43,338 nucleotides of DNA from Archaeoglobaceae archaeon (GCA_046290005.1 JBKBUO010000002.1:1-43338), one strand, 5' to 3'; positions 7,327-36,544 are shown, numbered from the stretch's first letter. The notes: generated by a model from the letters alone, not told the origin. Made by a program: numbers and translations.

Positions 7327-7329
7327 CTC

Positions 7330-10537: not shown

Positions 10538-10600
10538 GCTTAGTTCTTGAGTTTGCTAACCTTAAACTTTTGTACAACATGTTTACTTACATTAAAAAAT

Positions 10601-17540: not shown

Positions 17541-17602
17541 ATGTGCATTATCAACCTTAAATTTTTAATATGTGCTCATATAAATTGGTTATTGGTGATA
17601 TT
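17541..17602 (+). promoter_or_regulatory. Promoter cassette P2: TATA plus a TGCTCAT box
   Basis: ttaaatttttaatatgtgctcat at 17557-17579. An upstream related box atgtgcat at 17541-17548 lies 31 nt from the proximal box. GGTGA precedes ATG 17603. Confidence 0.5.
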
Positions 17603-19267: not shown

Positions 19268-20343
19268 GTTATCTGCGTGTTGCAATCATAGGGATTGGAT
19301 TTTCAGAGTTCGGCATACTCAACGAACCCTTCTACAACACTTCGTTTTTGGCAGCAAGGGAAGCGATAGGAGATGCGTCCATAGAAAGGGGAGAAATAGA
19401 CAGCTTTGTCCTTGGAGGCTATGATAGTCTCGGCGTAGGGAGAACAATAGCGAACATGTATACAGCCCCGGCTGCAGGAGCTTATCTCAGACACGAGATC
19501 AGAGTAACCGATGATTCAGCATTTGCGCTTGCTTTAGCGTTTATGCGAGTAAAGAGTGGTTTGAGCGATATATGCATGGTCTTAGGATTTGGGAAAAGCT
19601 CTGAAACTCCAGTTGAGCTTGTTGAACTGCAGAGTCTTGATCCATTCTTTTCACGCCCTTTAAACTTGTCTCTTCAGATGAGCTTTGCAATGCAGAGCTT
19701 TTGTTATCGCAGGAAGTATGGAATTGATGATGAAAAGATTGCGGAATGCGTTGCTAAAGACACTGAGAACGGCTCTAAAAATCCAAGGGCTTTTTTAAGA
19801 AAAAAGATAAGCGTTGAGGACGTTTTGAACTCAAAAATGGCGGTTTATCCGTTGAGAGAACTCGAAATTGCCAAGTGGTGCGATGGAAGTGTGGCGTTGA
19901 TTTTAGCAAGCGAGACAATCGCAAAAAGGATTTGTGAGAGACCAGTTTGGATAAAAGGCGTTGGTTGGAGCAACTCTGGCTATTATTTCGATGAATTAGA
20001 TTCGCTTCCGGCAACGAAACTCTCTGCAGATATGGCTTTCAAGATGGCAGGAGTTGAAAGAAGAGAAGTTGAAGCGGTTGAAGCAATGGACCTCGTAAGT
20101 GATCACCAGCCAATGATTCTCGAAGCCTTAGGTTTTGCAGAAAAAGGAAAGGGTCTTGATGTGAATGTAGAAGTTAACAAATCAGGCGGTGCTATTTGCA
20201 CGAATGTCTACGGTTCCACTGGGCTCTTTCTCATTGCGAATCTCATTGAAAGGATAAGGAGCGGTGAAATCGGCATCGGCGTAGCGCAGGCTATGAGTGG
20301 TTACGCTGGGCAGAGGGCTTGTGTTTCCGTTTTTGGTGTGTAG
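19264..20343 (+). CDS. Thiolase-fold (SCP-x type) protein, subunit type A, without the canonical catalytic Cys/His
   Basis: RVAIIGIGFSEFG at the N-terminus, CDGSVALILASE, VNKSGGAICTNVYGSTG. The nucleophile loop reads RVTDDSAFALALAFMRVKSG, with no Cys. I propose the GTG start at 19264, which overlaps the upstream TGA. Confidence 0.75.
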   Translation: MSYLRVAIIGIGFSEFGILNEPFYNTSFLAAREAIGDASIERGEIDSFVLGGYDSLGVGRTIANMYTAPAAGAYLRHEIRVTDDSAFALALAFMRVKSGLSDICMVLGFGKSSETPVELVELQSLDPFFSRPLNLSLQMSFAMQSFCYRRKYGIDDEKIAECVAKDTENGSKNPRAFLRKKISVEDVLNSKMAVYPLRELEIAKWCDGSVALILASETIAKRICERPVWIKGVGWSNSGYYFDELDSLPATKLSADMAFKMAGVERREVEAVEAMDLVSDHQPMILEALGFAEKGKGLDVNVEVNKSGGAICTNVYGSTGLFLIANLIERIRSGEIGIGVAQAMSGYAGQRACVSVFGV

Positions 20344-20345: not shown

Positions 20346-21503
20346 ATGAAGAGAGTTGCGATTGTTGGTTGTGGGCAAACGGAGTTCAAAACCAAGCACA
20401 AGAAAACGCATCCCGAAATCGTATACGAAGCTGTAAAGAGAGCCCTTGACCATGCTGGACTCGACATAAAAGACATTGAAGCTGTTGTTTATGGCTGCAT
20501 GGATCCATTTGATGGAATTTATCGCCCTGAACTGTGGGATTCCACCGCTACTGGTATTTTCAAGCCGATGATGAAGATAAGCACAGGAGGGACCACAGGA
20601 CTAACGACTGCGCTCGCTGCTTACGAAACAGTAGCAAGCGGTCTTTTCGATGTTGTAATGGCTGTTTGCGTTCAACGTGTTGGCGAGTGCGCAGATGCGC
20701 AATCCGTGCTAAACACCGCAGTAGATCCAATATACGAACGTTTCTCAGGTGTCGGAGCAATTACAGCATCGGCGTTTCAGGCTACCGCTTATATGCATAA
20801 GTACAACGCTACCGAAGAAGATTTAGCCTATGTTAGCGTAAAAGATCACGAGAATGCTCTGAAAAATCCATATGCTCATATAAAAATGAGAGTAAGCATA
20901 GAAGATGTTTTGAAAAGTCCAGTTATATGCTCTCCGCTGAAGTTGCTCGAATGTTGTCCAAGAAGCGATGGCGCCGCTACTATTATTTTTGCAAGTGAAG
21001 AAGTTGCAAAAAAACTGAGAGATAATCCCGCATGGATTCTTGGAGAGACAACGATAAGCGACAGCTATTACTTGGGAGTTCGCCCAGACTTCAGCTTTTG
21101 GGATTCCCTAAGCATTGCGGGAAGAAGACTCTATAGAGCAGTTGGGATTGATAATTCAATGAAAGATTTTGATGTTGCAGAACTATATTCTGCTTTTACA
21201 ATTCAAGAAGTCTTAGAACTTGAAGCCCTCGGGTTTGCAAAAGAGGGACAGGGCAAGGATTTTGCTAAGGAAGGGATAACAGCTGTTGATGGCGAAATGC
21301 CAACGAATCCATCGGGAGGAGTTCTCTGCACAAACCCCATAGGAGCAAGCGGGCTTGTAAGACTAATAGAGGCTTCGCTTCAAGTCATGAGAGAGGCGAG
21401 CAACCAAGTCGAAAATGCTGAAGTTGCACTGGCTCATGCTTGGGGAGGGACCTTGCAGTTCCATACTCTTGTGGTCGTTTCTTCAAAAAAGAGGTTGAGG
21501 TGA
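20346..21503 (+). CDS. Thiolase-fold (SCP-x type) protein, subunit type B, without the canonical catalytic Cys/His
   Basis: MKRVAIVGCGQTEF, CCPRSDGAATIIFASEE, NPSGGVLCTNPIGASG. The nucleophile loop reads ISTGGTTGLTTALAAYETVASG, with Gly in place of Cys. Confidence 0.8.
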   Translation: MKRVAIVGCGQTEFKTKHKKTHPEIVYEAVKRALDHAGLDIKDIEAVVYGCMDPFDGIYRPELWDSTATGIFKPMMKISTGGTTGLTTALAAYETVASGLFDVVMAVCVQRVGECADAQSVLNTAVDPIYERFSGVGAITASAFQATAYMHKYNATEEDLAYVSVKDHENALKNPYAHIKMRVSIEDVLKSPVICSPLKLLECCPRSDGAATIIFASEEVAKKLRDNPAWILGETTISDSYYLGVRPDFSFWDSLSIAGRRLYRAVGIDNSMKDFDVAELYSAFTIQEVLELEALGFAKEGQGKDFAKEGITAVDGEMPTNPSGGVLCTNPIGASGLVRLIEASLQVMREASNQVENAEVALAHAWGGTLQFHTLVVVSSKKRLR

Positions 21504-21964
21504 GAAAAGTGAGCGATGTTATGGAGTTTGAGGTCTGGTGGAAGATTCCATTTAGGCATTACGCCGGAATACATGCTACAAAATTTTTTGAAGGATTAAA
21601 AAATAAAAAGATTCTCGGAGTAAAATGCCCTAAGTGTGAGAGGGTCCTTGTTCCGCCAAGGGCATTTTGCGAGCGATGCTTTGTTGAGACAAACGAATGG
21701 GTCGAGGTTAAGGATGAGGGAGTTGTGGTGACACTGAGCGTAACTTACATGAAATTCACAGGTCTTCCTGATCCGCCATACGCAGTTGGGATTGTGAAGT
21801 TAGATGGCGCTGATACCGGGATTCTCTGTTACCTTGGTGGGATAGACTTAAGCGATTGGAAAAAAGTGCATGAAGTCTTCAAACCTGGAACCAGAGTCAA
21901 AGCAGTCTGGAAAGATATTCCTGAGGGCAAGATAACGGATATTCTCTACTTTAAGGTGGTGTGA
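21500..21964 (+). CDS. DUF35 protein (zinc ribbon plus OB fold), a partner of thiolase-fold enzymes
   Basis: A CPKC...CERC rubredoxin-like ribbon followed by an OB-fold-like C-terminus. The start is ambiguous: GTG 21500 overlapping the stop, GTG 21509, or ATG 21521. Confidence 0.8.
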   Translation: MRKVSDVMEFEVWWKIPFRHYAGIHATKFFEGLKNKKILGVKCPKCERVLVPPRAFCERCFVETNEWVEVKDEGVVVTLSVTYMKFTGLPDPPYAVGIVKLDGADTGILCYLGGIDLSDWKKVHEVFKPGTRVKAVWKDIPEGKITDILYFKVV

Positions 21965-22407
21965 TGGAGGTTCTATATTTTGAGGAATTCGAAGTGGGAA
22001 GGGAATTCGAAACTGCTGGAAGAACGATTACAGAAGCGGACATAGTTAACTTTGCGGGTATTACTGGTGATTGGAATCAACTTCATACAGACGCTGAATT
22101 CGCAAAAAATACGATCTTTGGTCAGAGAATAGCACATGGAGCACTTGTATTTTCCATAATGACAGGACTACTTGTGAGACTTGGTTTCATCGAAAAAACG
22201 ATCATCGCATTTTATGGAATCGACAAACTGCGTTTCACGAACCCAGTTTTCATAGGTGACACAATAAAGGCGGTTGCCAAGGTTACTGAGAAAGAGGATA
22301 GGAGAGCATACGGAGTCGTTACTATTGAGTCAAGAGTCGTTAAACAAACTGGCGATGTTGTGCTCAAGTGCGTTTTAAAGGTGGCGGTTAAAAAGAAGGG
22401 TGAGTAG
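21964..22407 (+). CDS. MaoC-like (R)-specific enoyl-CoA hydratase (hot-dog fold)
   Basis: The hydratase 2 motif FAGITGDWNQLHTDAEFA. The start overlaps the DUF35 stop (TGATG). Confidence 0.85.
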   Translation: MEVLYFEEFEVGREFETAGRTITEADIVNFAGITGDWNQLHTDAEFAKNTIFGQRIAHGALVFSIMTGLLVRLGFIEKTIIAFYGIDKLRFTNPVFIGDTIKAVAKVTEKEDRRAYGVVTIESRVVKQTGDVVLKCVLKVAVKKKGE

Positions 22408-22408
22408 G

Positions 22409-23650
22409 ATGGAATTCGAGTTTACCGAGGAGCAAAAGATGATTGCAAACTCAGCGAAAGAGATCGCAGAGGACTTCCCGCCAGAGTATTGGAGAGAAAA
22501 GGATGCAAAAGGTGAGTTTGCGGAGGAGTTTTTCAAGGCAATTGCAAAGGCTGGATTTTTTGGAATCGTGATTCCAGAAGAATACGGTGGCTCCGGCTAT
22601 GGAGTCACCGAGCTTTTGATTGCGATGGAAGAATTGGCTGCGAATGGCTGTGGAGCAGGAGGAGTTTGGTATTTCGTTCTAACAGAGGTTTTTGGAGCAT
22701 TGCCCATAGTCAGATATGGGAGCGAAGCTCAGAAAGAGAAATACTTACCAAAGATAGCAAGAGGAGAGCTCGAGTTCTGTATGGCTCTCACTGAGCCAGA
22801 TGCGGGAACGAACACGTTGGCTATAAAAACGAGAGCTGTAAAAGACGGCGATGAGTGGGTGATCAACGGGAACAAGATATGGATAAGCGGTGTAGATAGG
22901 GCTAAGGGGATGCTACTCGTAACGAGGACGACACCTTTGGGAAGTGCACCGAGGAAAAGCCTAGGTTTAACACTTTTCCTCGTCGATCTACCGAGCAAGG
23001 CGGTTAAGATAAATCCGATTCCGAAACACGGTATAAACTTTTCTAAGAGCTGTGAAGTCAGCATAAGTGCTCTAAGGGTTAAAGATGATGCAATCCTTGG
23101 CGAGAAGGATCTTGGATGGTATCTGTTGCTCGACGTCCTAAACCCCGAGAGAATGTCTGCAGCAGCTGGAGCAATTGGAGGAGCAACTCTTGCAATAAGA
23201 AAGGCAGTAGAATATTCGAAGCAGAGAAAAGTCTTTGCGGATCCGATTGGTAGCTACCAAGGACTTCAGTTCCCAATTGCAGAAGCTTTCTCTGGACTAA
23301 AGTGCGCAGAGTTGATGATGTTTAAAGCTGCGTGGCTTTACGACAACAAGTTCAAAAGCGAGGACGTGAAAGATCCCAAGAAGAGGTTTGAACTTGCACC
23401 GATTTTCAAAGAAATAGGAGATTGCTCGAATCTTTCAAAAGTTGTTGCGGTGGAGAACGCAATCAAAGCGGTTTACTGGGCTATGCAAGTCTTTGGTGGC
23501 TATGGCTATGCAAAGGAATACGATGTGGAGAGATGGTGGCGGGAAGTGAACTTGCTCAGACTTGCTCCTGTGACACAGCAGATGGCTCTGAACTACATCG
23601 CTGAGCACATCCTCGGGATGCCGAGAAGTTACAGAACAGGCTATGAGTGA
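22409..23650 (+). CDS. Acyl-CoA dehydrogenase with the catalytic Glu apparently at the IVD/LCAD-type position
   Basis: N-terminal FEFTEEQKM, ALTEPDAGTN, and the C-terminal FGGYGYAKEYDVERWWRE. LDVLNPERMSAAAG carries a Glu before the conserved Arg. The usual YEGT Glu site reads RLAPVT. Confidence 0.85.
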   Translation: MEFEFTEEQKMIANSAKEIAEDFPPEYWREKDAKGEFAEEFFKAIAKAGFFGIVIPEEYGGSGYGVTELLIAMEELAANGCGAGGVWYFVLTEVFGALPIVRYGSEAQKEKYLPKIARGELEFCMALTEPDAGTNTLAIKTRAVKDGDEWVINGNKIWISGVDRAKGMLLVTRTTPLGSAPRKSLGLTLFLVDLPSKAVKINPIPKHGINFSKSCEVSISALRVKDDAILGEKDLGWYLLLDVLNPERMSAAAGAIGGATLAIRKAVEYSKQRKVFADPIGSYQGLQFPIAEAFSGLKCAELMMFKAAWLYDNKFKSEDVKDPKKRFELAPIFKEIGDCSNLSKVVAVENAIKAVYWAMQVFGGYGYAKEYDVERWWREVNLLRLAPVTQQMALNYIAEHILGMPRSYRTGYE

Positions 23651-25481
23651 AATCAAAAAAGTTGTAAAAGGGAAAGAGTTAGAAACAATGAAGAGAGAGA
23701 GCTTAAACGAGATGCTTTGGAGCACAGCAAAGGAGCATCCAGAAAAACCATGCGTGAGCTTTTACGATGATGGCAAACTGAAATCGATCAGCTATATAGA
23801 CTTCTGGAACCTTGTAGAAAGAATTTCAAAAGGTCTAATCGAGCTCGGTTTTAAAAAAGGCGATAGGGTGGCGATTTTGAGTTCTACGAGATACGAGTGG
23901 GAGCTTTTTGACTTCGCAGTAATGTGCACTGGAGCCATAGTTGTGCCGATCCATACTACTCTTAGCGGGGACATCGTTCGTTATATATTGAAAGACTCGG
24001 GATCGAAGCTAATAGTGGTTGAAAACAAGGAGCTTCGGGAAAAAATTGGGGATTACGAGATAGAAAAGATAGAGATCGAAGATAAAAGCTCAGTTGAAGA
24101 GTTGATGAAACTGGGGGAAGAAAGCGAAGTGGACTTCGAGAAGTTATGGAAATCTGTGAAACCCGAAGACATTTCGAGCATCGTTTACACCTCAGGAACA
24201 ACAGGGGAGCCTAAAGGAGCAATTCTCACCCATTGGAACTGGAGATTTAACGCGATGTCTGTTATGTCGATAATACCCTTTTACCCAGGTGAGCCCTATA
24301 TCTGCTATCTACCGCTTAGCCATGTTTTTCAAAGGCTGGTTTTTTATGCGGGAATTAGCAGGGGAGCAAATGCCGTCTTTACCCCTCCTGCAAGATTTTT
24401 AGATACACTGAGATCTGTCAAGCCAGTTGCCTTCGTTACCGTGCCCAGAATCCTCGAAAGAGTTAACAAGGGACTTTTGGAGAACGTTGAAAAGCAGAGT
24501 GAACTGAAGAAGAGGATCTTTTACTGGTCGAGAAAAGTTGCAATAGAGTGTGGTGAGAAAATAAGCAAAGGCGAAAGATTTGGACTTGGACTGAGGATAA
24601 GAAGATTTTTCGCGGACAAGCTCGTTTATAGCAAAATAAGAAATGCTCTTGGATTGCAAAACATTCGCTTCATTTGCTCTGCAGCCGCTGAACTGCGAAA
24701 AGATCTTGCTTACATGTTTAACGGTATGGGCATTCCTGTGATAGAAGGCTATGGGATGACAGAAACCGCAGCTCCAACGAATCTGAATCCATTGAAAAGG
24801 TTTAAACCCGGCACTGTTGGTCCACCGATACCTGGAATAATGGAAGCGATTGCAGAAGATGGGGAAATCCTTGTAAAAGGAGATAACGTCATGCTTGGCT
24901 ATTGGAACAAACCAGACGAAACTGCAAGGTGCTTCACAGAAGACGGTTGGTTCAAAACAGGCGACCTTGGCGATTTTGATAAGGATGGCTACCTGATCTT
25001 CCTTGGTAGAAAGAAACACATCATCGCGCTCGACACAGGTAAAAAGGTTTCGCCTTCACGCATAGAGGAACTGTTGCTCCAAAGCCCCTACGTAAACGAC
25101 GCCTTACTGGTTGGTGACGGGAGACCATACATCGTAGCACTTATTGTTCCTAATTTTGCACTTCTTCTCGATTTGATCGAAAAAATGGGAATTGGTTACG
25201 ATAAGAGCAAGATCGTGGTTTCGAAGAGCGTCTCTGGAGACATGGAGATAAATGAGATTCCCAAGGACATTTTAGATCATCCAAAGGTCGTGGAGTTCTA
25301 TTCGAAGGTCGTCGAAGAGTTGAACCAGAAACTATCGGAGGAGGAGAAGATTAGAAAGTTCAAACTGCTCAACAGGACGTTTACTATAGAGAGAAACGAG
25401 TTGACGCCCACGCTAAAGAAGAGAACGCACGTTATCGTTGATCGCTACAAAGATCTAATCGATTCTCTTTATTCACGATAG
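23643..25481 (+). CDS. Long-chain-type AMP-forming acyl-CoA ligase
   Basis: IVYTSGTTGEPKGA, GYGMTETA, FKTGDLG, and the C-terminal NELTPTLKKR typical of FAA1/FadD15-like ligases. The start could instead be ATG 23688. Confidence 0.85.
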   Translation: MSEIKKVVKGKELETMKRESLNEMLWSTAKEHPEKPCVSFYDDGKLKSISYIDFWNLVERISKGLIELGFKKGDRVAILSSTRYEWELFDFAVMCTGAIVVPIHTTLSGDIVRYILKDSGSKLIVVENKELREKIGDYEIEKIEIEDKSSVEELMKLGEESEVDFEKLWKSVKPEDISSIVYTSGTTGEPKGAILTHWNWRFNAMSVMSIIPFYPGEPYICYLPLSHVFQRLVFYAGISRGANAVFTPPARFLDTLRSVKPVAFVTVPRILERVNKGLLENVEKQSELKKRIFYWSRKVAIECGEKISKGERFGLGLRIRRFFADKLVYSKIRNALGLQNIRFICSAAAELRKDLAYMFNGMGIPVIEGYGMTETAAPTNLNPLKRFKPGTVGPPIPGIMEAIAEDGEILVKGDNVMLGYWNKPDETARCFTEDGWFKTGDLGDFDKDGYLIFLGRKKHIIALDTGKKVSPSRIEELLLQSPYVNDALLVGDGRPYIVALIVPNFALLLDLIEKMGIGYDKSKIVVSKSVSGDMEINEIPKDILDHPKVVEFYSKVVEELNQKLSEEEKIRKFKLLNRTFTIERNELTPTLKKRTHVIVDRYKDLIDSLYSR

Positions 25482-25522: not shown

Positions 25523-26080
25523 ATGGTTAAGCGGAGAATACAGACCACGATCAGCGATGAAGCCTACAAAATAATCGAAAGGCACAAGGAGAAGTATAGT
25601 GGCATGAATGCAGTTATCGAAGAAGCTTTAAGGCTTTTAGATAGAAAAGAAGATATTTTAAGCGAAGACGATCTTTTGCTCTTGAAGCTCATACGCGACC
25701 TAGACTTTACAGGTTGCGGAAGAACGCAGTATCTCTATTTAATCCTAGGGGATATAGACAAGGCTGTCAAGGAAAGTTTAATGGAAACAGCGGTCGAGTG
25801 GTTTTTGAAGAAACCTTTCGTGGAAATAAGTCTTGAAGAGTTTCTTGAGACTGTGAAAAGAGGTTGGACGATTTTAAATAGGGCAGATTACATAGAGATC
25901 ACAAGAGAAAAGGACTCGATAGTGTTTTTCTGTGAGCACACGATGCGAAGAAAAGAAGTGAGTGAATTTCTCGCGAACCATATCCTCTGGATATACGAGA
26001 AATACTATCGTAGCAAATGGGATTTTTCTCTGAGCGTAACAACTAACAGCTTCACAATCAAGTTCACAACAAAGCGTTGA
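25523..26080 (+). CDS. Putative ribbon-helix-helix DNA-binding protein with an unknown C-terminal domain
   Basis: The N-terminal KRRIQTTISDEAYKIIERHKEKYSGMNAVIEEALRLL has a beta-strand / helix / helix pattern like CopG/Arc/MetJ. The remainder has no family I recognise. Confidence 0.4.
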   Translation: MVKRRIQTTISDEAYKIIERHKEKYSGMNAVIEEALRLLDRKEDILSEDDLLLLKLIRDLDFTGCGRTQYLYLILGDIDKAVKESLMETAVEWFLKKPFVEISLEEFLETVKRGWTILNRADYIEITREKDSIVFFCEHTMRRKEVSEFLANHILWIYEKYYRSKWDFSLSVTTNSFTIKFTTKR

Positions 26081-26087: not shown

Positions 26088-26147
26088 TGCTCAAGCTCCG
26101 AGGTTAAATTTTAATATTTGCTCATTCTATTTATTTTCGGTGGTGAA
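26088..26147 (+). promoter_or_regulatory. Promoter cassette P3: TATA plus a TGCTCAT box
   Basis: ttaaattttaatatttgctcat at 26104-26125. A second box tgctcaa at 26088-26094 lies 31 nt upstream. GGTGGTGA precedes ATG 26148. Confidence 0.5.
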
Positions 26148-26594
26148 ATGGTAACGAGGTATGAGGGCATACCATTTGTTGCTCGGTTCCAATGGAGCGT
26201 TGGGGAGCTTTTTGACGAATTTCTCAGTGGTCTAAGGAATGCAAAGCTCATGGCTTCGAAATGCGGTTGTGGTTACACCGTATTGCCCCCGAGGATAAGA
26301 TGCCCAAAGTGCCATGCAAAGATTGGTAAGGAGAACTTGATTGAGCTCAGCGGAAAAGGAATAGTAGAGACTTACACAAAAGTTTTCTTCAAGTTCGATG
26401 GTAGCGGAAACGAAATCTGGCTTGATAAACCAGAGATATTAGCCATGGTCAGATTTGAAGGTGCGAATTCTGTTCTCGTCTTTCCTTACTTGGATGCCGA
26501 AATCTCTGAAGGACTTGAAGTGGAAATCGTATGGAGAGAGGAGAGGAGCGGTAGCGTTTCAGACATCTTGGGCGTTAGGAAGGTGAGAAGATGA
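26148..26594 (+). CDS. DUF35 protein (zinc ribbon plus OB fold)
   Basis: A CGCG...CPKC ribbon. I prefer ATG 26148 over the TTG at 26118, which lies inside the promoter box. Confidence 0.8.
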   Translation: MVTRYEGIPFVARFQWSVGELFDEFLSGLRNAKLMASKCGCGYTVLPPRIRCPKCHAKIGKENLIELSGKGIVETYTKVFFKFDGSGNEIWLDKPEILAMVRFEGANSVLVFPYLDAEISEGLEVEIVWREERSGSVSDILGVRKVRR

Positions 26595-27730
26595 GGGTTG
26601 CACTCGTAGGCTACTCGAGTTTACCCATGTCAAAAGACATGGAAATGACAAGAGAAGAGAGTGTATTTCTCTCCACAAAAATGGCTTTGAAGAGTTGCAA
26701 TCTCACGAGAAGTGAGATAGACACAGTTGTTAGTGCATCTTCGGATTTCTTCGACGGTAGAACAATATCGAGCTGTATGCTAATCGGCGCTTTGGGGGCG
26801 TATCTAAAGGACGAGAGCAAGAGCGAAGAAGATGGATTGATGGCAGTTATCTACGCAATGCAGAGAATTCTCTCAGGAACCCATCAAATCGCTCTCGTTA
26901 CAGCCCATACCCACAGCTCCATCTTTAATCCGCACCAAATCAGCCGTTACATGCTTGAGCCCCTCTGTGATAGACAAAACGAACTTCTCAACGACATCGT
27001 TCTTTCAGCGTTGCAGGCAAGAGCGTATATGCGCAAGTATGATGTGATCGAGGAAGACATCGCATACGTTGCATACAAGAATCTAAGAAATGCATCTAAA
27101 AATCCCGTTTCAGTTGTGAGAACACCAGATATTAGCATTGAAGAAATCTTAGCCTCGAAGGTATACGCAGAACCCATCAGGGAGCTTATGATCGCCCCTA
27201 ATTGTGACGGTGTCGCCTCCGTGGTCTTGGCATCGGAAAAAGTTGCATATGAGATAACAGACAACCCAATTTGGATCGAAGGTTTCGGTGTTTCTGTCGG
27301 CAACTACTTTAGAGACTGCGATTTGTCCAAGCTGGAATCTCTGCAAAGAGCTGCGAAGAGAGCTTACGAAATGGCTGAAATTTCTGATCCATACAACGAC
27401 ATCGACTTCGCCGAAGTTACGGAGAGATTTTCTCATCAGGAGTTGATGATATATGAGGCGATCGGGATTGCGAGGGAAGGAAAAGGAAGGAGTTTGCTGG
27501 ATAACGGTGTCACTTGGAGTGATGGGGATTTCCCAGTGAACACAAGCGGTGGTGCGTTAGGCGGAGATGCGATGTGCGCAACTGGACTTTATCGACTCGT
27601 TGAAGCTGTTAAGCAGATAAGGGGAGAAGCTGAAAATCAGATTTCTGGAGTTAAAAGAGCCTTAGTGCACTCGCAGTGGGGTCTTGTTGCTCAGAAAAAT
27701 GCCATTCTTATAGTAGGTGGTGAAGTATGA
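26591..27730 (+). CDS. Thiolase-fold protein, subunit type A-prime, without the canonical catalytic Cys/His
   Basis: MRVALVGYSS, CDGVASVVLASE, VNTSGGALGGDAMCATG. The nucleophile loop reads KSEEDGLMAVIYAMQRILSG. ATGA overlaps occur at both ends. Confidence 0.75.
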   Translation: MRVALVGYSSLPMSKDMEMTREESVFLSTKMALKSCNLTRSEIDTVVSASSDFFDGRTISSCMLIGALGAYLKDESKSEEDGLMAVIYAMQRILSGTHQIALVTAHTHSSIFNPHQISRYMLEPLCDRQNELLNDIVLSALQARAYMRKYDVIEEDIAYVAYKNLRNASKNPVSVVRTPDISIEEILASKVYAEPIRELMIAPNCDGVASVVLASEKVAYEITDNPIWIEGFGVSVGNYFRDCDLSKLESLQRAAKRAYEMAEISDPYNDIDFAEVTERFSHQELMIYEAIGIAREGKGRSLLDNGVTWSDGDFPVNTSGGALGGDAMCATGLYRLVEAVKQIRGEAENQISGVKRALVHSQWGLVAQKNAILIVGGEV

Positions 27731-28968
27731 GGAGGGTTGCAATAATTGGTTGTGGACAAACGAAGCATGGAAGGAGAACCGATGTCAATCAAGCTGAAAT
27801 GGTCAGTGAAGCGGTTTGGAATGCAATCGATGACGCTGGAATTGGGATCGACGATATCGAAGCTTTTGCAGTCGGAAACATGCAAGGATTTGGTGGAATA
27901 GCGCATCCGGATCTGATATTTTCTGAATACATCGGAGCGGTTGGCAAACCAATGCAAAGGGTTGCGACTGGTGGAACAGTTGGAGGTGCTGTGGCGCATC
28001 TTGGATACTACATGGTTGCTTCGGGTATGTATGACGTCGTTCTTGCAACCGCTTGGGAGAAGCACAGCGATAGCGCTGAACCCGGTGCAACGACTGGTTT
28101 GCTACACGTTGCGTTCGCAAATTTGAGCTACATGTTTAAGCTCGGAATGGACATGCGTTCTTTTGCGATCATGGGATTAGCGGGGGCTGCTGCGGGAATT
28201 TCTGCTTATCAAGCTGCGCAGTATTTGTTCCGCTCCGGTTGTAAAATAGACCATTATGACATGGTTGCCGCAAAGGCAAGAAGGAATGCTGCAAAGAACA
28301 AATACGCTCACTTGCGTTGGCCCAATTGCAAACCAGAAGATATTGCAAAAACTGAAATGCTAATTTGGCCAATGAGATTTGGTCACATATGTCCAGCGAG
28401 CGACGGTGCGTCGGCAGTGATCTTTGCAAGTGAAGATGTTGTTAAAAAACTTGGAATAAAAGAGGTTGCATGGATATTAAGCGTTGCAGCTTTTGCAGAT
28501 GAGGAGAACGACCAAGGGGAATCTTATCAGGGCACGGGTGTTCTTGATTACAGCGAGCAAATTGGTTGTGTTTTATCAGCAAAGAAGGCATACGAAAGGG
28601 CAGGAATAGAAAATCCAAGAAAAGAAGTAGACATGGCTGAAATCTACTCTGCATTTCCCCATCAAGAGCTGATGTTTAGTGAAAGGCTTGGGTTCTTTGA
28701 TGAAGGCACCGCCTGGAAAGCTCTCGAAGAAGGCGTGACTGAAATAGATGGTGACTTCCCAATTACGCCTTCTGGAGGTGTTCTCGCGACGAATGCAATT
28801 GGTAGCTCAGGGTTGCAGAGAGTCTTAGAATGCGCTTTGCAAATAATGAACAAAGCTGAGGAGCATCAAGTGCCAAAAGACGTTCGAATCGCAGTTGCCC
28901 ATGCATGGGGCGGGCAGACGCAGTTCAACACGGTAACGGTTCTTTCAGATAAACCGAAGAGGTGGTGA
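27727..28968 (+). CDS. Thiolase-fold protein, subunit type B-prime, without the canonical catalytic Cys/His
   Basis: MRRVAIIGCGQTKHG, CPASDGASAVIFASED, TPSGGVLATNAIGSSG. The nucleophile loop reads VATGGTVGGAVAHLGYYMVASG. Confidence 0.8.
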   Translation: MRRVAIIGCGQTKHGRRTDVNQAEMVSEAVWNAIDDAGIGIDDIEAFAVGNMQGFGGIAHPDLIFSEYIGAVGKPMQRVATGGTVGGAVAHLGYYMVASGMYDVVLATAWEKHSDSAEPGATTGLLHVAFANLSYMFKLGMDMRSFAIMGLAGAAAGISAYQAAQYLFRSGCKIDHYDMVAAKARRNAAKNKYAHLRWPNCKPEDIAKTEMLIWPMRFGHICPASDGASAVIFASEDVVKKLGIKEVAWILSVAAFADEENDQGESYQGTGVLDYSEQIGCVLSAKKAYERAGIENPRKEVDMAEIYSAFPHQELMFSERLGFFDEGTAWKALEEGVTEIDGDFPITPSGGVLATNAIGSSGLQRVLECALQIMNKAEEHQVPKDVRIAVAHAWGGQTQFNTVTVLSDKPKRW

Positions 28969-29474
28969 AAGTGATCAAGGAAAAATTTAAGGAGACGTCA
29001 AGAGTCTTTGGAGATTGGAACGTCGGAGCTTACAAATGGAAAGCTCCGAAAGGATATTTAGACGAATATGTCGCAATGCTGGGGAGGAAAAAGATACTTG
29101 GATCTCTTTGCAAGGGATGTGGAAGAGTTTACGTTCCGCCAAGAGAGTTCTGCGGTCGTTGCTTTGAAAAAATTGAAGAAAAGGTGATCGTAAGCAACTA
29201 TGGAAGGTTGCTTGCTTTTCTCGTCTCTCCACCTCTGCAAAAAGGAAAGATAATGATAGCTGGGATGGACGTTGTTGCAATGGGAATCTTAAAAGAAGGT
29301 GAAACGATAATCCTTGGTATAGTGCAGTTCGAGGGCTCATCTTCGAAAATGGTTATACCAGTTCTAAATACAAAGCCTGAGAACCTCCGTGTGGGAATGA
29401 GGGTAAAGGCGGTTTTTGCTGAAGAAACGAAGGGTCAGCTCTCGGATCTACTTGGGGTTGAGCCTGCAGATTAA
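28965..29474 (+). CDS. DUF35 protein (zinc ribbon plus OB fold)
   Basis: A CKGCGRVYVPPREFCGRC ribbon. The GTG start overlaps the upstream TGA (GTGA at 28965-28968). Confidence 0.8.
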   Translation: MKVIKEKFKETSRVFGDWNVGAYKWKAPKGYLDEYVAMLGRKKILGSLCKGCGRVYVPPREFCGRCFEKIEEKVIVSNYGRLLAFLVSPPLQKGKIMIAGMDVVAMGILKEGETIILGIVQFEGSSSKMVIPVLNTKPENLRVGMRVKAVFAEETKGQLSDLLGVEPAD

Positions 29475-29512
29475 ATTTATTTTTATATTAAAATTTTTAA
29501 ATTAAAAGCACA

Positions 29513-29565
29513 TTTGCTTATAATTGCTGATAAAATACATTATAATGCTCAAACAATATACTTTC
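29513..29565 (+). promoter_or_regulatory. Promoter cassette P4 with three TGCT-type boxes
   Basis: tgcttat at 29515-29521, tgctgat at 29525-29531 and tgctcaa at 29546-29552, spaced 10 and 21 nt apart, within AT-rich TATA-like sequence upstream of ATG 29566. Confidence 0.4.
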
Positions 29566-31179
29566 ATGAAGCTGAGGTATGAGTTGCTGATTAAAAAGGC
29601 ACTCTATTTTCCACTCTACAGCTACCCAGAGAAGGAGATAGTGTGGAGAGACGGAAAATACAGCTACAGAGTGTTCTACGATAGGTTACAGCGGTTTGCA
29701 AGTGGTTTGGAAGGCTTGGGGATCAAGGATGCAAAGATAGCCTTCTTTGACTGGAATACACATCATTACCTCGAGGGCATGTTCGCAATTCCCATGATGG
29801 GCTCAATTTTGCACTTTGTAAACATCCGCCTCTCTCCGCAGGAGATCGTATACACTGCTAACTACGTAAAAGACGATTATGTAATCTTTGGCAAAGACTT
29901 TCTCCCGCTGTTGGAGAGGATTGCTCCGCATATTCCAAGTGTGAAGGGCTGGATAGCGACTGAAGAAGTTGAAACTTTGCTTAAGCCACTCTACTACTAC
30001 GAGGACATAGTCAAAAGCGGATCCAAATACGAATTCCCAGAATTCGATGAGAACAAAACTGCATGTGTGTATTTCACATCTGGCACCACTGGATTACCAA
30101 AAGCGGTTCACTTCTCGCATCGTGGGATCATCTTGCAGTGTATAATCAACGGTCTCTCACTCTCGATAAATCACTCTCCTACAAGACTTTCAAGCGATGA
30201 CGTTGTCATGCACATCCCCCCGTTCTTCCACGGTATGGGTTGGACTTTCCCATATCTGGCGACTATGTTTGGAATGAAACAAGTTCTACCCGGGCGATAT
30301 GAGCCGAAGACGATGCTCGAGCTGATAAAGAGGGAGGAGGTAACTTTCGCTGCTGGTGTGCCCGTGTTTTTGAGGATGCTGATAGACTCGCCAGAAAGCA
30401 GGGACTACGCTGAGGTTCTGAGGGGTCTAAAATTTGTTTGCGATGGAGAACATCCGCCAAGGGTTCTGTTTGAGAGAGCGAAGCAGTTTGGAATTGAGAT
30501 GATCGAGGCTTTCGGAATGTCTGAAGGAGTTGGCTTCACATTCGCTGTTCTAAAAGACCACATGCTCGAATGGAGCTGGGAAAAACAACTCGAGTTCTTG
30601 AACAAAGCAGGCTTGCCAGCGCCACTCGTTGAAGTGAGAATATTGGACTTCGAGGGCAAAGAAGTGCCAAGAGACGGGAAAACGATGGGAGAAATACTGA
30701 TCCGAAGCCCCGGTCTAACTGAAGGATATTGGATGAACCCCGAGAAAACAAAGGAGTCATGGACTGAAGATGGTTGGTTCAAAACGGGTGATCTCGGAGT
30801 CTGGGATGAGGAAGGATACATAATGATCCTTGATAGAGCTAAAGACGTGATAAAGAGCGGTGGCGAATGGATAAGCTCTGTAAGACTTGAGGGGCTAATA
30901 CTTACGCACCCTGCAGTGAACGAGTGCGCAGTTATTGCGGCGAGAAGCGAGAGGTGGGGTGAACGTCCAGTTGCGGTAGTAACGCTAAAACCAGGTAAAA
31001 CAGCAAGTGAAGAGGAGATAAAAAGCTTTCTTGTTGAGAAATACGTTGAAACAGGAACGATTCCGAAGTGGTGGATTCCTGATAGGATATTCGTCGTGAA
31101 CGAGATCCCGAAGACGAGCGTAGGGAAGATAAACAAGAGGAGCATAAGAGAGGTATACAAAGACTTGGTTTTACAATGA
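29566..31179 (+). CDS. Medium/long-chain AMP-forming acyl-CoA ligase
   Basis: VYFTSGTTGLPKAV, WFKTGDLG, and PKTSVGKINKR at the C-terminus. The track start at 29524 (TTG) lies in the promoter. Confidence 0.85.
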   Translation: MKLRYELLIKKALYFPLYSYPEKEIVWRDGKYSYRVFYDRLQRFASGLEGLGIKDAKIAFFDWNTHHYLEGMFAIPMMGSILHFVNIRLSPQEIVYTANYVKDDYVIFGKDFLPLLERIAPHIPSVKGWIATEEVETLLKPLYYYEDIVKSGSKYEFPEFDENKTACVYFTSGTTGLPKAVHFSHRGIILQCIINGLSLSINHSPTRLSSDDVVMHIPPFFHGMGWTFPYLATMFGMKQVLPGRYEPKTMLELIKREEVTFAAGVPVFLRMLIDSPESRDYAEVLRGLKFVCDGEHPPRVLFERAKQFGIEMIEAFGMSEGVGFTFAVLKDHMLEWSWEKQLEFLNKAGLPAPLVEVRILDFEGKEVPRDGKTMGEILIRSPGLTEGYWMNPEKTKESWTEDGWFKTGDLGVWDEEGYIMILDRAKDVIKSGGEWISSVRLEGLILTHPAVNECAVIAARSERWGERPVAVVTLKPGKTASEEEIKSFLVEKYVETGTIPKWWIPDRIFVVNEIPKTSVGKINKRSIREVYKDLVLQ

Positions 31180-33170: not shown

Positions 33171-34868
33171 TCACCCAACTTGCTCTCTTTCTCCCCTCTT
33201 TATCTTTTCTATTTCTCTTTCTCTTAGAACCCTTCTCAAGAGTTTGCCCGAAGGTGTTCTCGGCAATGAGTCAACGAATTCGACTTCCCTTATCCTCTTA
33301 TACCCCGAAATCCTCTCTTTGACCCACTCTAAGATTTCTTTTTCGCTCACTTTCTTTGAGTATTCCGGTTTTAGAACGATGAACGCCTTCGGTATCTCTC
33401 CCGCTTCGGGATCGGGTTTGCCTATAACTGCAACGTCTTGGACAGCTTCGTGCCTCATGATGAGGGCTTCAAGCTCGAAGGGTGCTATGGTGTAGCCTTT
33501 GTACTTTATTACCTCCTTGATTCTGTCCTGAAATATCAGAAATCCCTCCTCGTCTATGTAGCCTATATCGCCTGTTCTAAAGAACTTTTTACCCGTCTTT
33601 TGGTCAATCCACCAAGCTTTGGCATCTTCTTCAGGTCTCTTCCAGTAACCCTTGAAAATGTTCGGTCCAGAAATCACGATTTCTCCGCTCTTGTTGATGT
33701 CTTCGATCTCCCTCCCAGTTTCGATGTCCACTATTTTTAACTCTACGTCTGGTAAAGGAATCCCTTGTCTCTCTGTCCTGTCAAGCCTTATTGGTGGATT
33801 GCTTGTGCACATTGGGCTTGCTTCAGTCATCCCCCAAACTTGGTTGTGGAGCAAATTGGGATTGTTGCACTTCTCTGCGGCAACTTTCTTCATTCTATCT
33901 ATCAGCGCTCTAGCCACAGGCCAAGCTCCAGTGGCGAAGCACTTGAGAAATCTCCAATCGTATCTCCTCGTTTCTTCGCCTTCAAGATAACTTATCAGCA
34001 ACGCATATGCAGGTGGCACAGCCCAAGAAATCGTTGCCTGATAATTCTCTATGTTCTCTGCAAGCAATTGTGGATTGAACATGCCCATTATTATGTATGT
34101 CCCACCCACACCAAGCAAGATGTTGAAGAAGCCAAACTCCGCCATGTGGAACATGGGCATACTCCCAACGTGGGTATCCATGTGGCTAATCCCAAAAGCG
34201 GTGGCTAATTGAATGGCGTTTGAAACCAAGTTGTAATGTGTGAGCATCACACCCTTTGGTGGTCCAGTGGTTCCACCAGTGTAGCAGATGGTCGCTATGT
34301 CATTCAAGGGATCTATGTCGATCGCCACGGGTTTTGCTTCTCCTTCCTCAACAAGCTTACCAAGTCTATAAGCACTCTCAACATCTCCGCCCACAACGAT
34401 GACTTTTTCAACTTGCACTTTGTCTTTAACGTTCTGGAAAACCTGGTAGAAATTGCTGTGAATCACGAGAGTTGAAACTTCTGCGTCGTTCAGAACGAAC
34501 TCGAGCTCATACTCCCTATACATCCAGTTGATTGGAACTTGGATCGCTCCAAGCTTCCAATTGGCATAGGTGACCACAACGTAATCGGGTGAGTTTGGAA
34601 GCATCACTCCGACTTTGCTACCTTCTGAAATCCCAAGCAGGTGAAAAGAATTTGCGAGTCTGTTCGTCAATTCACCCAGCATTTTGAAGGTAATGATGTC
34701 GGGCAAGTCATAGGGAAACCTTGGTTCAGCGTAGATGATGGCGATTTTATCACCATACTTCTTGACCGCGTTCTCCAAATATTCCCCGAGGGAGATCTTG
34801 GGGTAGTAAAGCGAGGGGAAGCCGATTCTATAGGAGAGCCTACTAATGTCTACCATATCGCATCCCAC
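33171..34868 (-). CDS. AMP-forming acyl-CoA synthetase
   Basis: ICYTGGTTGPPKGV, FFRTGDIG, PRTPSGKLLRR. The start is GTG 34868, or alternatively ATG 34856. Confidence 0.85.
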   Translation of the reverse strand: MGCDMVDISRLSYRIGFPSLYYPKISLGEYLENAVKKYGDKIAIIYAEPRFPYDLPDIITFKMLGELTNRLANSFHLLGISEGSKVGVMLPNSPDYVVVTYANWKLGAIQVPINWMYREYELEFVLNDAEVSTLVIHSNFYQVFQNVKDKVQVEKVIVVGGDVESAYRLGKLVEEGEAKPVAIDIDPLNDIATICYTGGTTGPPKGVMLTHYNLVSNAIQLATAFGISHMDTHVGSMPMFHMAEFGFFNILLGVGGTYIIMGMFNPQLLAENIENYQATISWAVPPAYALLISYLEGEETRRYDWRFLKCFATGAWPVARALIDRMKKVAAEKCNNPNLLHNQVWGMTEASPMCTSNPPIRLDRTERQGIPLPDVELKIVDIETGREIEDINKSGEIVISGPNIFKGYWKRPEEDAKAWWIDQKTGKKFFRTGDIGYIDEEGFLIFQDRIKEVIKYKGYTIAPFELEALIMRHEAVQDVAVIGKPDPEAGEIPKAFIVLKPEYSKKVSEKEILEWVKERISGYKRIREVEFVDSLPRTPSGKLLRRVLREREIEKIKRGEREQVG

Positions 34869-34891: not shown

Positions 34892-36544
34892 CTACTTGGA
34901 GTAGTAATCCCTATAGATTTCCCTCAGAGCTCTCTTGCTAAACTTTCCAACGCTTGTCTTTGGTATTTCTTCGACAAAGAGGATCTCGTCTGGTATCTGC
35001 CACTTCGCGAATCTCTTCATAAGATGTTCCTTGATCTCCTCTTTTGTTATCTTCTCTCTGTATTCAGGCTTTGGCACCACAATCGCAAGCGGTCTCTCCT
35101 GCCATTTGGGATGGGGGACTCCAATGACGCAAGCTTCGAAAACCTTAGGATGCGCCATTATGTAGTTCTCGAGGTCAACGCTACTTATCCATTCTCCACC
35201 GCTTTTTATCAAGTCTTTGAATCGATCCACTATTTTTATATATCCATTTGGATCTATTGTCGCTGCATCTCCGCTTCTCCACCACTTTCCAGTTTTATCT
35301 TCTATGAACGACTCAAACGTTCTCGGATCCCTGTAGTATTCCTCAATTACCCACGGACCACGGATGCAAAGCTCTCCAACTGTTTTTCCATCCCAAGGGA
35401 GCTCTTTTCCATTTTCATCCACGAGCTTTACTTCAACGCCAAAAACCGGAACTCCTTGTTTTCTCCTAATTTCCCACTTTTCTTCCTCTCCAAGTTCCTC
35501 AAGCTCTGGTTTTAGGAAATTGTAGCAAACGAGTGGACTCGTCTCTGTTGCGCCGTAAGCGTGGATTATTTCGATTCCAAACTCCTTCAATCCCTTTATC
35601 ATCGCCAACGGCGGTTCAGTAGCCCCACTAAAGGCTCTCATGTTGAACTTGGGTTTTGGATCCATCCTCTGAAGGTAGTTTAGAAGTGGTATGAAGATCG
35701 CTGGAGCTCCACCGGTAACGGTAACGTTTTCTTTCAACATCAGATCAACTATTGGCTTTAAATCGTCGAGCATGAATCTACCCGGAAAGACGAGCTTCGC
35801 ACCCGCAATCGTCGCTGCGAAAAATCCGCCCCAGCCCTGAGCGTGGAACATGGGAACGATTTGTAAATAAACGTCCCTACTACTTACGTTTTGGGCAGTT
35901 AAGATCGCTAGGGTGTGTAAGTAAATCGCTCTATGGGAGTAGTAAACGCCCTTTGGTTTACCGGTGGTTCCTGAAGTGTAACAAGCGAGGCATGCGGATC
36001 TTTCATCGATCACTGGGAACTCGTATCTCTCGTCTTGCTCTTTGAGCAAATCTTCATAGTTGAACGTCTCGAAGAAAGTCTCAGGTGGCTTTCCATCGCT
36101 CATCACAACAAACTTCGCCTTTACAGCATCTAAAAGCGGTATGGCGAGCGGAAGTAGGGATTCATCGATGAAGATTATCTTCGCTCCGCTGTGCTTCGCT
36201 ACGTAAGCCATTTCCTCAGGATGAAGCCGTAGATTCATCTCAAGCAAAACCGCACCGATTCCCGGAATTGCAAAGTAGAGCTCGTAGAATCTATGCGTGT
36301 TCCAGCTCAAAACTCCTATTCTATCCCCAACTCTCAAACCCAAACTTTCAAGAGCGTTTGCAAGCTTTGAAACCCTTTTAAAAGCTTCAGCGTAGTTGTA
36401 TCTGAACATCGTCCCATCTAAACGCCTTGAGGCTATCTCTCTGCTCGAAAAGAACTTTGCAGCGTGCCTCAGCATTTCTATTAAGTTGAGCTGGTAGTCG
36501 TCCATCATAGTCGAGGGAAAACCTCTTACTATCATCTCTCTCAC
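34892..36544 (-). CDS. Medium-chain-type AMP-forming acyl-CoA synthetase
   Basis: STMMDDYQLNL at the N-terminus, ACYTSGTTGKPKGV, WWRSGDAA, PKTSVGKFSKR. Confidence 0.85.
   Translation of the reverse strand: MREMIVRGFPSTMMDDYQLNLIEMLRHAAKFFSSREIASRRLDGTMFRYNYAEAFKRVSKLANALESLGLRVGDRIGVLSWNTHRFYELYFAIPGIGAVLLEMNLRLHPEEMAYVAKHSGAKIIFIDESLLPLAIPLLDAVKAKFVVMSDGKPPETFFETFNYEDLLKEQDERYEFPVIDERSACLACYTSGTTGKPKGVYYSHRAIYLHTLAILTAQNVSSRDVYLQIVPMFHAQGWGGFFAATIAGAKLVFPGRFMLDDLKPIVDLMLKENVTVTGGAPAIFIPLLNYLQRMDPKPKFNMRAFSGATEPPLAMIKGLKEFGIEIIHAYGATETSPLVCYNFLKPELEELGEEEKWEIRRKQGVPVFGVEVKLVDENGKELPWDGKTVGELCIRGPWVIEEYYRDPRTFESFIEDKTGKWWRSGDAATIDPNGYIKIVDRFKDLIKSGGEWISSVDLENYIMAHPKVFEACVIGVPHPKWQERPLAIVVPKPEYREKITKEEIKEHLMKRFAKWQIPDEILFVEEIPKTSVGKFSKRALREIYRDYYSK

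Follow-up and report, generated by a model that had tools for sequence, protein, structure and literature searches.

The subject of this analysis is a four-gene module at positions 26148-29474 of a 43,338-nucleotide stretch of DNA from an Archaeoglobaceae archaeon (GCA_046290005.1 JBKBUO010000002.1:1-43338), the whole of which is referred to below as the window. Within the module, genes for two thiolase-fold proteins, A' and B', are enclosed by genes for two DUF35 proteins, Dp1 and Dp2. Pfam searches found Thiolase_C_1/Thiolase_N in A' and B', and zf-ChsH2 together with OB_ChsH2_C in Dp1 and Dp2. A preliminary description of the sequence had given the order DUF35, A' (379 amino acids, aa), B' (413 aa), DUF35, with an overlap at every junction; the open reading frame calls returned the same order and sizes, and the overlaps were read directly from the sequence as ATGA at 26591-26594, ATGA at 27727-27730 and GTGA at 28965-28968. 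The module and its borders are laid out as follows.

26104-26147, + strand: intergenic leader with an A/T-rich TATA-like box, TTAAATTTTAATATTT (26104-26119), and the ribosome-binding motif GGTGGTGA (sequence reading)
26148-26594, + strand: Dp1, DUF35 protein, 148 aa from ATG (the open reading frame itself opens at TTG 26118)
26591-27730, + strand: A', thiolase-fold protein, 379 aa (Pfam and alignment)
27727-28968, + strand: B', thiolase-fold protein, 413 aa (Pfam and NCBIfam PRK08313)
28962/28965/28971-29474, + strand: Dp2, DUF35 protein, about 167-170 aa (Pfam zf-ChsH2)
29475-29523, + strand: A/T-rich spacer with T-runs, after Dp2 (sequence reading)

The likely start of Dp1 is the ATG at 26148, which follows the ribosome-binding motif at 26139-26146, and the leader is its putative promoter; for Dp2, the in-frame GTG codons at 28962 and 28971 are as possible as that at 28965. 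The spacer probably marks where transcription of the four genes ends and also serves the next gene as promoter region. From the overlapping junctions, the TATA-like stretch before Dp1 and the T-rich spacer after Dp2, we infer that the four genes form one transcription unit.

Both thiolase-fold proteins were aligned with the reference thiolases 7yvy from Pyrococcus, 6esq from Methanothermococcus, the zebrafish SCP2-thiolase 6hsj and BbsB (7pxp). In B', the column of the nucleophilic Cys is occupied by Gly83 (EAACASGG against ATGGTVGG), the HDCF/HDAF position reads YSAF, with Tyr307 in place of His, and the GHP position reads TNA, with Asn356 in place of His; the two motifs singled out earlier for this subunit, VATGGTVGG and TPSGGVLATNAIGSSG, are both present. 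In A', the loop of the nucleophilic Cys reads EEDG (within KSEEDGLMAV), HDCF has become TERF, and GHP has become GDA. The nucleophilic Cys, the HDCF-type His/Cys and the GHP His by which a true thiolase is recognized are therefore all missing from both subunits. The term 'Cys-less', used in the preliminary description, is right for the catalytic Cys but not for the proteins as a whole, as six other Cys remain in each. The loop assignment is not an alignment artefact, because phmmer and MAFFT agree on it and the loop is invariant across families. Monomer models built with AlphaFold2 (AF2) confirmed the thiolase fold in both proteins (template-modelling (TM) scores of 0.83-0.90 to 6esq/7yvy): the best PDB match of B' (predicted local distance difference test, pLDDT, 84; predicted TM score, pTM, 0.88) is 6esq_A, with TM 0.86/0.90, and that of A' (pLDDT 76, pTM 0.84) is the thiolase 7yvy, with TM 0.83/0.88.

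The residues found in place of the thiolase ones are themselves conserved. None of 111 B' homologues has a Cys in the former nucleophile loop, and 110 have TGG[TS]xG there; E-x-Y-x-x-F, GGV-x-x-[TS]NAIG and H[GA]WGG are almost invariant, and T81, G82, G83, Y307, F310, N356, H392 and W394 are invariant or at least 95% conserved in the family, B' itself keeping the conserved His392-x-Trp-Gly-Gly. In the A' family, E[ST]KxE[EG]DG is found in 111 of 120 homologues and GRTIS in 115, giving a conserved acidic loop pattern of ExKxExDG, and the conserved positions (E75, K77, E79, D81, G82, R21, E22, R57 and others) include many charged ones. It might be argued that the module still encodes a thiolase or acyltransferase which uses another nucleophile, namely Thr84/Thr81, a residue of A' or a DUF35 cysteine, because Thr81 and Thr/Ser84 are conserved in the loop and ST0096 (4yzo) has Ser at the Cys position. 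However, the nucleophile position itself is Gly, the activating or protonating His and Cys have also gone, the DUF35 cysteines are zinc ligands and we found no precedent for a thiolase with a Thr nucleophile, all of which make this explanation very improbable.

A scan of one genome per species yielded 80 related loci, all from metagenome-assembled genomes (MAGs), and a search for A' homologues located the whole module in the genome of the cultured Archaeoglobus neptunius (GCA_016757965.1, locus L089). The archaeal hosts are Archaeoglobaceae, Hadarchaeota, Jord- and Freyarchaeota (Asgard), Thermoproteota and Ca. Methanolliviera, and the bacterial hosts are Dehalococcoidia/Chloroflexi, Deltaproteobacteria/Thermodesulfobacteriota and Actinomycetota (Geothermincolales, Solincola and Acidimicrobiales). 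Close B' homologues (58-86% identity) occur in many metagenomes, none with a functional name, and the best Archaeoglobaceae match, from a hot-spring bin, is 98% identical. Wherever the contig covers the full locus, A' and B' lie side by side, accompanied by two DUF35 genes, in the order Dp1–A'–B'–Dp2 in archaea and Actinomycetota and A'–B'–Dp2–Dp1 in Dehalococcoidia and Deltaproteobacteria. B' is the most conserved of the four genes, with identities of 85% for B', 58% for A' and 52% for Dp1 at locus L008, and of 91% for B', 77% for Dp2, 75% for A' and 68% for Dp1 at locus L007. The pairwise distances of A' and B' are correlated with r = 0.94 (76 loci), which fits inheritance and transfer as a unit. 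Strong constraint on both families, together with synteny across 80 genomes, leads us to reject a one-off decay of thiolase genes in favour of a conserved unit. A literature search on DUF35 with thiolase-like heterodimers found nothing on this architecture, and no publication was found tied to the A. fulgidus locus tags AF0133-AF0136.

The MAG of Ca. Methanolliviera hydrocarbonicum NM1b holds two copies of the module (L017 and L084). By grouping, for A' and B' alike, one copy is of the Dehalococcoidia/archaeal type and the other of the Actinomycetota type, which indicates horizontal transfer of the whole unit.

A second, related set of genes, termed module 1, lies upstream in the window and has a single DUF35 gene.

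~19264-20343, + strand: module-1 A
20346-21503, + strand: module-1 B
~21500-21964, + strand: D1, the single DUF35 protein of module 1
21961-22407, + strand: module-1 MaoC hydratase
22400-23650, + strand: module-1 acyl-CoA dehydrogenase

The preliminary description held that the two modules match subunit by subunit, and alignment agreed with this: B has STGGTTG, LYSAF and TNP at the three catalytic positions, A has TDDSAF, MDLV and TNV, and the acidic loop KSEEDGLMAV of A' falls in the same columns as TDDSAF of A (MAFFT). Its reading of the pair as old also implied separate clades for A/A' and B/B'. A neighbour-joining tree (simple distance correction, 200 bootstraps, 47 sequences, 379 columns), with the Cys-bearing thiolases 7yvy, 6esq, BbsB 7pxp and SCP2-thiolase 6hsj as outgroups, recovered an A-type clade in 188 of 200 replicates and a B-type clade in 179, the two together being set apart from the Cys-bearing thiolases in 193. 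The A-type clade comprises the A' orthologues, module-1 A, a truncated paralogue from a Rhodococcus plasmid and an actinobacterial PRK07937 protein; the B-type clade comprises the B' orthologues, B, paralogues from Dehalococcoidia, a Rhodococcus plasmid paralogue and an actinobacterial PRK08313 protein. An exclusive clade of A and A' appeared in only 69 of 200 replicates, so that both are A-type without being closest relatives, and pairwise BLAST was ambiguous, A' scoring higher to B than to A. Tyr307 is invariant among all B-type sequences, and A' does not have it.

Two further sequences are of note here. The A' orthologue of an Actinomycetota locus (L062 6848-7990) has an intact EVHDCF, with the nucleophilic Cys gone, which suggests that the A-type descends from an HDCF-bearing SCP2-type thiolase. 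ST0096 from Sulfolobus tokodaii (4yzo), in which the Ser at the nucleophilic-Cys position lies in DNTSGSGG and HD and GHP are kept, branches beside the A+B clade (145/200).

The nearest named relatives of the pair are the Ltp4 and Ltp3 proteins of actinobacterial sterol degradation. B' passes the NCBIfam model PRK08313 (518.5 bits, cutoff 514); A' scored 166 bits on PRK07937, for which the cutoff is 419, yet it clusters with the Ltp4-like protein in the A-type clade (188/200). A tblastn search of plasmids with B' led to a Tsukamurella locus (plasmid NZ_LR134446, L086), in which a 309-aa tandem DUF35 protein (two OB_ChsH2_C) is followed by a 359-aa PRK07937 protein (593 bits), which carries the name 'lipid-transfer protein', and a 390-aa PRK08313 protein (734 bits), and in which the pair adjoins an AMP-ligase, a crotonase and a nitronate-monooxygenase-family gene. 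The Rhodococcus orthologue of this PRK08313 protein (79% identity) lies in the classic cholesterol cluster, in the order luciferase-like oxidoreductase, OB-fold protein, 353-aa thiolase-like protein and 391-aa thiolase-like protein, with a P450, a thiolase and a ChsH1/ChsH2/Ltp2-like set 3' of the pair. This is the order Rv3520c–Rv3521–ltp4–ltp3 of M. tuberculosis, where Rv3521 is only a 'conserved hypothetical' (PMC6429209), and it identifies PRK08313 and PRK07937 as the Ltp3 and Ltp4 families. The N-terminal half of the Tsukamurella tandem DUF35 protein (L086 3990-4919) has no zinc-ribbon cysteines, and the Rhodococcus protein at the Rv3521 position (L088 7954-8925) belongs to the DUF35 family. 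'chsH3' was rejected as a name for the Rv3521 protein, chsH3 being Rv3538.

Both systems have adjacent, non-identical SCP2-thiolase-fold genes, A-type then B-type, with two DUF35 units per pair and with AMP-ligase and hydratase neighbours, and B' shares with Ltp3 the motifs T[GA]G[ST]xG, E-I-Y-x-P-F, [ST]N-x-IG and H-x-[WY]-GG (TAGSVG, EIYVPF, SNPIG and HAYGG in 116-118 of 118 Ltp3-like sequences). The identity is, however, only about 38% for B' with Ltp3-like and about 31% for A' with Ltp4-like proteins; the DUF35 proteins are encoded here by separate genes flanking the pair rather than by one fused tandem; the loop is TGGTxG rather than TAGSVG; and the hosts here, archaea and bacteria that are anaerobic, lack a steroid-catabolic cluster. 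Neither the window nor the 80 related loci showed any steroid-ring genes; they have generic acyl-CoA genes, a ketone-carboxylase-like enzyme or BKACE instead. The proposed family signature TGGT[TV]G is sound in that the loop is near-invariant, but needs the broader form T[GA]G[ST]xG to take in Ltp3.

Ltp3–Ltp4 has been described as a heteromeric aldol-lyase that cuts C24–C25 of C24-branched sterol side chains after desaturation, carboxylation and hydration (PMC6678751; Wilbrink 2012 via PMC6593523, PMC10832528 and PMC8708139). A 2026 mycobacterial interactome preprint had no Ltp/DUF35 content. As judged from sequence, the module is a variant, widespread among archaea and anaerobes, of the heteromeric thiolase-fold lyases of Ltp3/Ltp4 type; it has two DUF35 partners, and its chemistry and substrate are inferred. 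A different view of the same residue losses would be that A', B' and the DUF35 proteins form a noncatalytic scaffold or adaptor, a pseudoenzyme which organizes or channels substrates among the nearby beta-oxidation enzymes (hydratase, dehydrogenase and ligase): the canonical catalytic residues have all gone from both subunits, and DUF35 is a documented scaffold in archaeal thiolase/HMG-CoA synthase and fatty-acid-synthase complexes (bioRxiv 10.1101/2024.07.05.601840; PMC12329534). We regard such a role as improbable, because the polar residues of the former active-site loops (Tyr307, Asn356, His392 and TGG) are near-invariant across archaea and bacteria, because A' is not the only partner with which B-type proteins occur, and because ltp3 and ltp4 are, according to Wilbrink 2012 via PMC6593523, each genetically essential for one catabolic step, the degradation of the C24-branched sterol side chain.

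The two DUF35 genes are distinct. Dp1 scored 23.5 bits on zf-ChsH2 (cutoff 23.2) and 17.5 bits on OB_ChsH2_C, and Dp2 scored 34.9 and 21.4 bits, respectively, both OB_ChsH2_C scores lying under the cutoff of 27.1 (Pfam). Profile scoring separated them into two distinct orthologue groups, Dp1 scoring 215 on the Dp1-type and 70 on the Dp2-type profile, and Dp2 scoring 287 on its own type and 89 on the other. A Dp2-type gene lies directly 3' of B' in 79 of the 80 loci; the Dp1-type gene precedes A' in 44 loci and follows Dp2 in 35. The zinc ribbon of Dp2 is the canonical CxxC...CxxC. As side observations, the first zinc knuckle of Dp1 is C-x-C, not C-x2-C, in the window and in five other Archaeoglobaceae loci, and 13 Dp2-type proteins have no recognizable zinc ribbon.

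The solved aldolases Sal–Shy(DUF35) and Ltp2–ChsH2(DUF35) have a dimer between two DUF35 domains (PMC12329534), and a pair of thiolase-fold subunits that are not identical would be expected to have two different DUF35 caps. The arrangement of two DUF35 units to a pair takes three forms: the A'B' paralogues, the fused tandem of the Ltp4/Ltp3 operon, and a third module in Dehalococcoidia. The difference in DUF35 stoichiometry between the two modules of the window had been noticed earlier and left unexplained; the counts, two and one, are as stated, and the likely explanation is that two units per heteropair are the ancestral or common state, the single-DUF35 module 1 and a Rhodococcus plasmid locus appearing to be reduced variants. 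The same reasoning gives a structural rationale for Rv3521 of M. tuberculosis, as a putative double DUF35 cap for Ltp4/Ltp3. The earlier suggestion of an old, conserved heteropair with two copies in one island is also strengthened, both by the Ltp4/Ltp3 match and by the third Dehalococcoidia pair.

The third module lies directly 5' of A'-B'-Dp2-Dp1 (L053 162-3501 and L029 2350-5647) and has the order DUF35, A-type (EGDG loop, EVYDAF), B-type (TTGGTTG, ELYIPA), DUF35. The Rhodococcus locus, on plasmid pLP1 of Rhodococcus qingshengii (L087, 518-11336), is a module-1-like cluster with a single DUF35 gene, in the order acyl-CoA dehydrogenase, acyl-CoA dehydrogenase, MaoC_N, MaoC_C, 304-aa A-like protein, 392-aa B-type protein (HTGGATGG, EVYAPF), DUF35, CaiB CoA-transferase, SDR and CoA ligase.

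To our knowledge, the only source of known thiolase-fold retro-aldolases so far is steroid side-chain degradation by aerobic bacteria (Ltp2, Sal and Atf1). In Ltp2 (YDHF) and Sal (YDCY), Gly replaces the nucleophilic Cys, and the catalytic base is the Tyr that stands in for the His of HDCF (PMC12329534). B' resembles these enzymes (6ok1 and 9myr) in its SCP2-thiolase fold, Gly83 at the Cys position and Tyr307 at the HDCF-His position, and its DUF35 partners recall their obligatory DUF35 partner and DUF35–dimer–DUF35 layout (PMC12329534); they differ in being homodimers with a single DUF35 type. We propose that the module forms a DUF35–A'–B'–DUF35 hetero-complex in which B' is a catalytic retro-aldolase, and place the probability of this reading at about 0.55. 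B' is the proposed catalytic subunit because the Gly and Tyr are invariant in the B-type and not in the A-type, and because it is the most constrained gene of the four.

The core of the predicted complex would be a pseudo-symmetric thiolase-fold heterodimer of A' and B', with Dp1 and Dp2 each capping one face, a layout that would mirror the DUF35–Sal–Sal–DUF35 and ChsH2(DUF35)–Ltp2 assemblies. With Gly83 in place of the nucleophilic Cys, no acyl-enzyme could form. Tyr307 would act as general base on the beta-hydroxyl, as in Ltp2 and Sal, while Asn356 and the TGG[TS]xG loop at a helix N-terminus would stabilize the thioester enolate or another anion. The predicted reaction is a retro-aldol cut of a 3-hydroxyacyl-CoA that 3-hydroxyacyl-CoA dehydrogenase cannot oxidize, such as one whose beta-carbon is tertiary or hindered, and the products would be a ketone or aldehyde and acetyl- or propionyl-CoA. 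A' would be an obligatory non-identical partner that shapes the site, and the DUF35 proteins would shape and stabilize the substrate cleft. The CoA ligases, acyl-CoA dehydrogenase and MaoC hydratase of the island may supply the flanking steps, and its ketone-carboxylase-like enzyme could turn the ketone product into a beta-keto acid.

Membership of the Ltp2/Sal clade was rejected, as B' and A' are nearer true thiolases in both sequence and fold than to 6ok1 and 9myr. The archaeal thiolase/HMG-CoA synthase (HMGS)/DUF35 complex provides the best fold match for B' (TM 0.86/0.90) and shares a DUF35 partner gene, archaeal hosts and a place in acyl-CoA metabolism, but it is a true Claisen enzyme with Cys and His kept, a homodimeric thiolase and one DUF35 type; domain scans found no HMG-CoA synthase gene in the window. 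The benzoylsuccinyl-CoA thiolase BbsAB (7pxp) likewise has SCP2-type thiolase-fold and DUF35 subunits and serves an anaerobic beta-oxidation-like pathway, but BbsB keeps its Cys and His (QSACSAG, ELHDAF, GHP) and the enzyme is an alpha2-beta2 assembly with a single thiolase type. In PhlABC/MucABC (5m3k and 9vbo), two different thiolase-superfamily subunits are joined by a DUF35 protein; there, however, the partner PhlA is KAS-III/HMGS-like, PhlC uses Cys88 and there is one DUF35 type, whereas A' is an SCP2-thiolase paralogue. A PhlABC-like or thiolase/HMGS-like complex was therefore rejected, there being no KAS-III/HMGS partner and no nucleophilic Cys in either subunit.

Several observations weigh against a retro-aldolase centred on B'. 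The second catalytic residue is not the same, Tyr344 of Ltp2 corresponding to Asn356, at the +49/+50 position, and Cys304 of Sal to Ala309 in B'; the Asp of the YD motif has also gone (Ser308), which leaves no evident proton donor. B' matches the thiolases 7yvy and 6esq with E-values of 1e-35 and 5e-34, as against 1e-11 for Ltp2 (6ok1), and, as B' is nearer in sequence and fold to true thiolases than to Ltp2, its aldolase-like residues may be convergent. A' is so highly constrained, with many invariant charged residues, that catalysis may reside there instead of in B', or in both, and its conserved acidic loop is unexplained by the proposed mechanism. The aldol-lyase role of Ltp3/Ltp4 itself rests on genetics and pathway logic, and we found no in vitro assay of any enzyme of the A-type or B-type clade in the literature. 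The neighbourhoods add two further points: many loci have no hydratase nearby, and in 15 Dehalococcoidia/Chloroflexi loci the gene directly after A'-B'-Dp2-Dp1 encodes a BKACE (PF05853; e.g. L059 10332-11270, for which the nearest NCBIfam model is 3,5-dioxohexanoate:acetyl-CoA acetone transferase, 352.8 bits, under the cutoff of 430), which points to beta-keto-acid chemistry, for which an aldolase is not needed.

The BKACE neighbour raises the possibility that the module carries out a different C–C chemistry on beta-dicarbonyls or beta-keto acids, with the TGG[TS]xG loop as an anion hole for a carboxylate or enolate. The candidate reactions are decarboxylation of a malonyl- or beta-ketoacyl-thioester, as in TbSLP and the KS-Q/CLF-type Cys-less homologues, or retro-Claisen or hydrolytic cleavage of a 1,3-diketone. 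Both the window and L007 link the module to a carboxylase-like enzyme of a kind that produces beta-keto acids; the Gly-rich loop at a helix N-terminus would be a plausible anion site; and weak malonyl-CoA decarboxylase activity is known for TbSLP, a Cys-less protein resembling SCP2-thiolase (PMC12329534). The authors of that study, however, reread TbSLP as a probable aldolase, the BKACE link is confined to one bacterial lineage, and aldol chemistry is favoured both by homology to Ltp3 and by the invariant Tyr where the aldolases have their base, so that we think a beta-dicarbonyl reaction unlikely, if still worth bearing in mind. A literature search found no papers naming both DUF35 and DUF849/BKACE.

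If the module is a retro-aldolase, it may be tentatively placed in a pathway, although the pathway as a whole is rather doubtful: it could cleave the C–C bond in an as yet undescribed anaerobic route by which archaea and subsurface bacteria process beta-branched acyl-CoAs (isoprenoid-derived or 3-alkyl ones, for example). In such a route, acyl-CoA dehydrogenase and then MaoC hydratase would produce a tertiary 3-hydroxyacyl-CoA, which A'B'/DUF35 would cut to acetyl-CoA and a ketone; ATP-dependent carboxylation of the ketone would give a beta-keto acid, to be handled by a CoA ligase in Archaeoglobaceae or by BKACE in Dehalococcoidia, and the beta-keto acid would thereby re-enter beta-oxidation. 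Run in reverse, the route could build branched chains.

The gene content of related loci is relevant to such a pathway. Matches to the ligase downstream of the module, counting any AMP-binding homologue with E ≤ 1e-20, were found in 16 related loci, and clear orthologues by identity flank the module in Archaeoglobaceae loci; acyl-CoA dehydrogenase occurs in about 20 related loci, and in a Hadarchaeota locus (L049) two MaoC genes lie directly 3' of Dp2. In the Archaeoglobaceae MAG of locus L007, the carboxylase-like genes (6401-11539) come directly after Dp2 and the CoA ligase and share their strand.

As an architecture, the Ltp4/Ltp3-type heteropair together with its two DUF35 units emerges as ancient and widespread, extending beyond aerobic steroid degraders. 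Its genes are routinely annotated as 'acetyl-CoA C-acetyltransferase' or 'thiolase', and reconstructions of uncultured anaerobes probably over-count thiolases and overlook an aldolase-type beta-oxidation bypass; the sequence signature now separates B-type and A-type proteins from real thiolases. On the chemistry proposed, the module probably cuts C–C bonds beyond ordinary fatty-acid breakdown. The heteromeric Ltp3–Ltp4 has so far been characterized only genetically, and Archaeoglobus neptunius offers a thermostable, culturable source from which enzymes of this class could first be studied biochemically and structurally.

The gene content of the window as a whole reads as that of an acyl-CoA catabolic island, holding five AMP-forming CoA ligases, an acyl-CoA dehydrogenase, a MaoC hydratase, two family-III CoA transferases and a fused 3-hydroxyacyl-CoA dehydrogenase/enoyl-CoA hydratase. 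Its features outside the two modules include the following.

11494-16630, + strand: acetone/acetophenone-carboxylase-like enzyme, with Hydantoinase_B, Hydantoinase_A and Acetone_carb_G (Pfam/NCBIfam)
17570-19267 and 23643-25481, + strand: acyl-CoA ligases
25523-26080, + strand: 185-aa protein with no assigned function, directly 5' of the module and conserved in Archaeoglobaceae
29524-31179, + strand: AMP-forming acyl-CoA ligase, directly 3' of the module (Pfam AMP-binding; NCBIfam PRK06187, 513.5 bits, cutoff 476)
33171-34868 and 34892-36544, - strand: acyl-CoA ligases

The 185-aa protein gave no match in the Pfam copy searched, in NCBIfam or in the PDB; its orthologues lie 5' of Dp1 in seven Archaeoglobaceae loci and in Archaeoglobus neptunius, the orthologue of the latter having precomputed Pfam matches to AF_0136_N/AF_0136_C. 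The protein may serve the module as a dedicated regulator or as a fifth subunit. For the carboxylase-like cluster, the nearest NCBIfam models are acetophenone carboxylase subunits, with scores far under the cutoffs. Divergent from this cluster, on the - strand at 6004-11305, lie genes for the two family-III CoA-transferases, a sodium:solute symporter and an HTH_10/HVO_2525-type regulator. Five ligase paralogues within 20 kb is an unusually dense arrangement, which suggests several acid substrates or intermediates.

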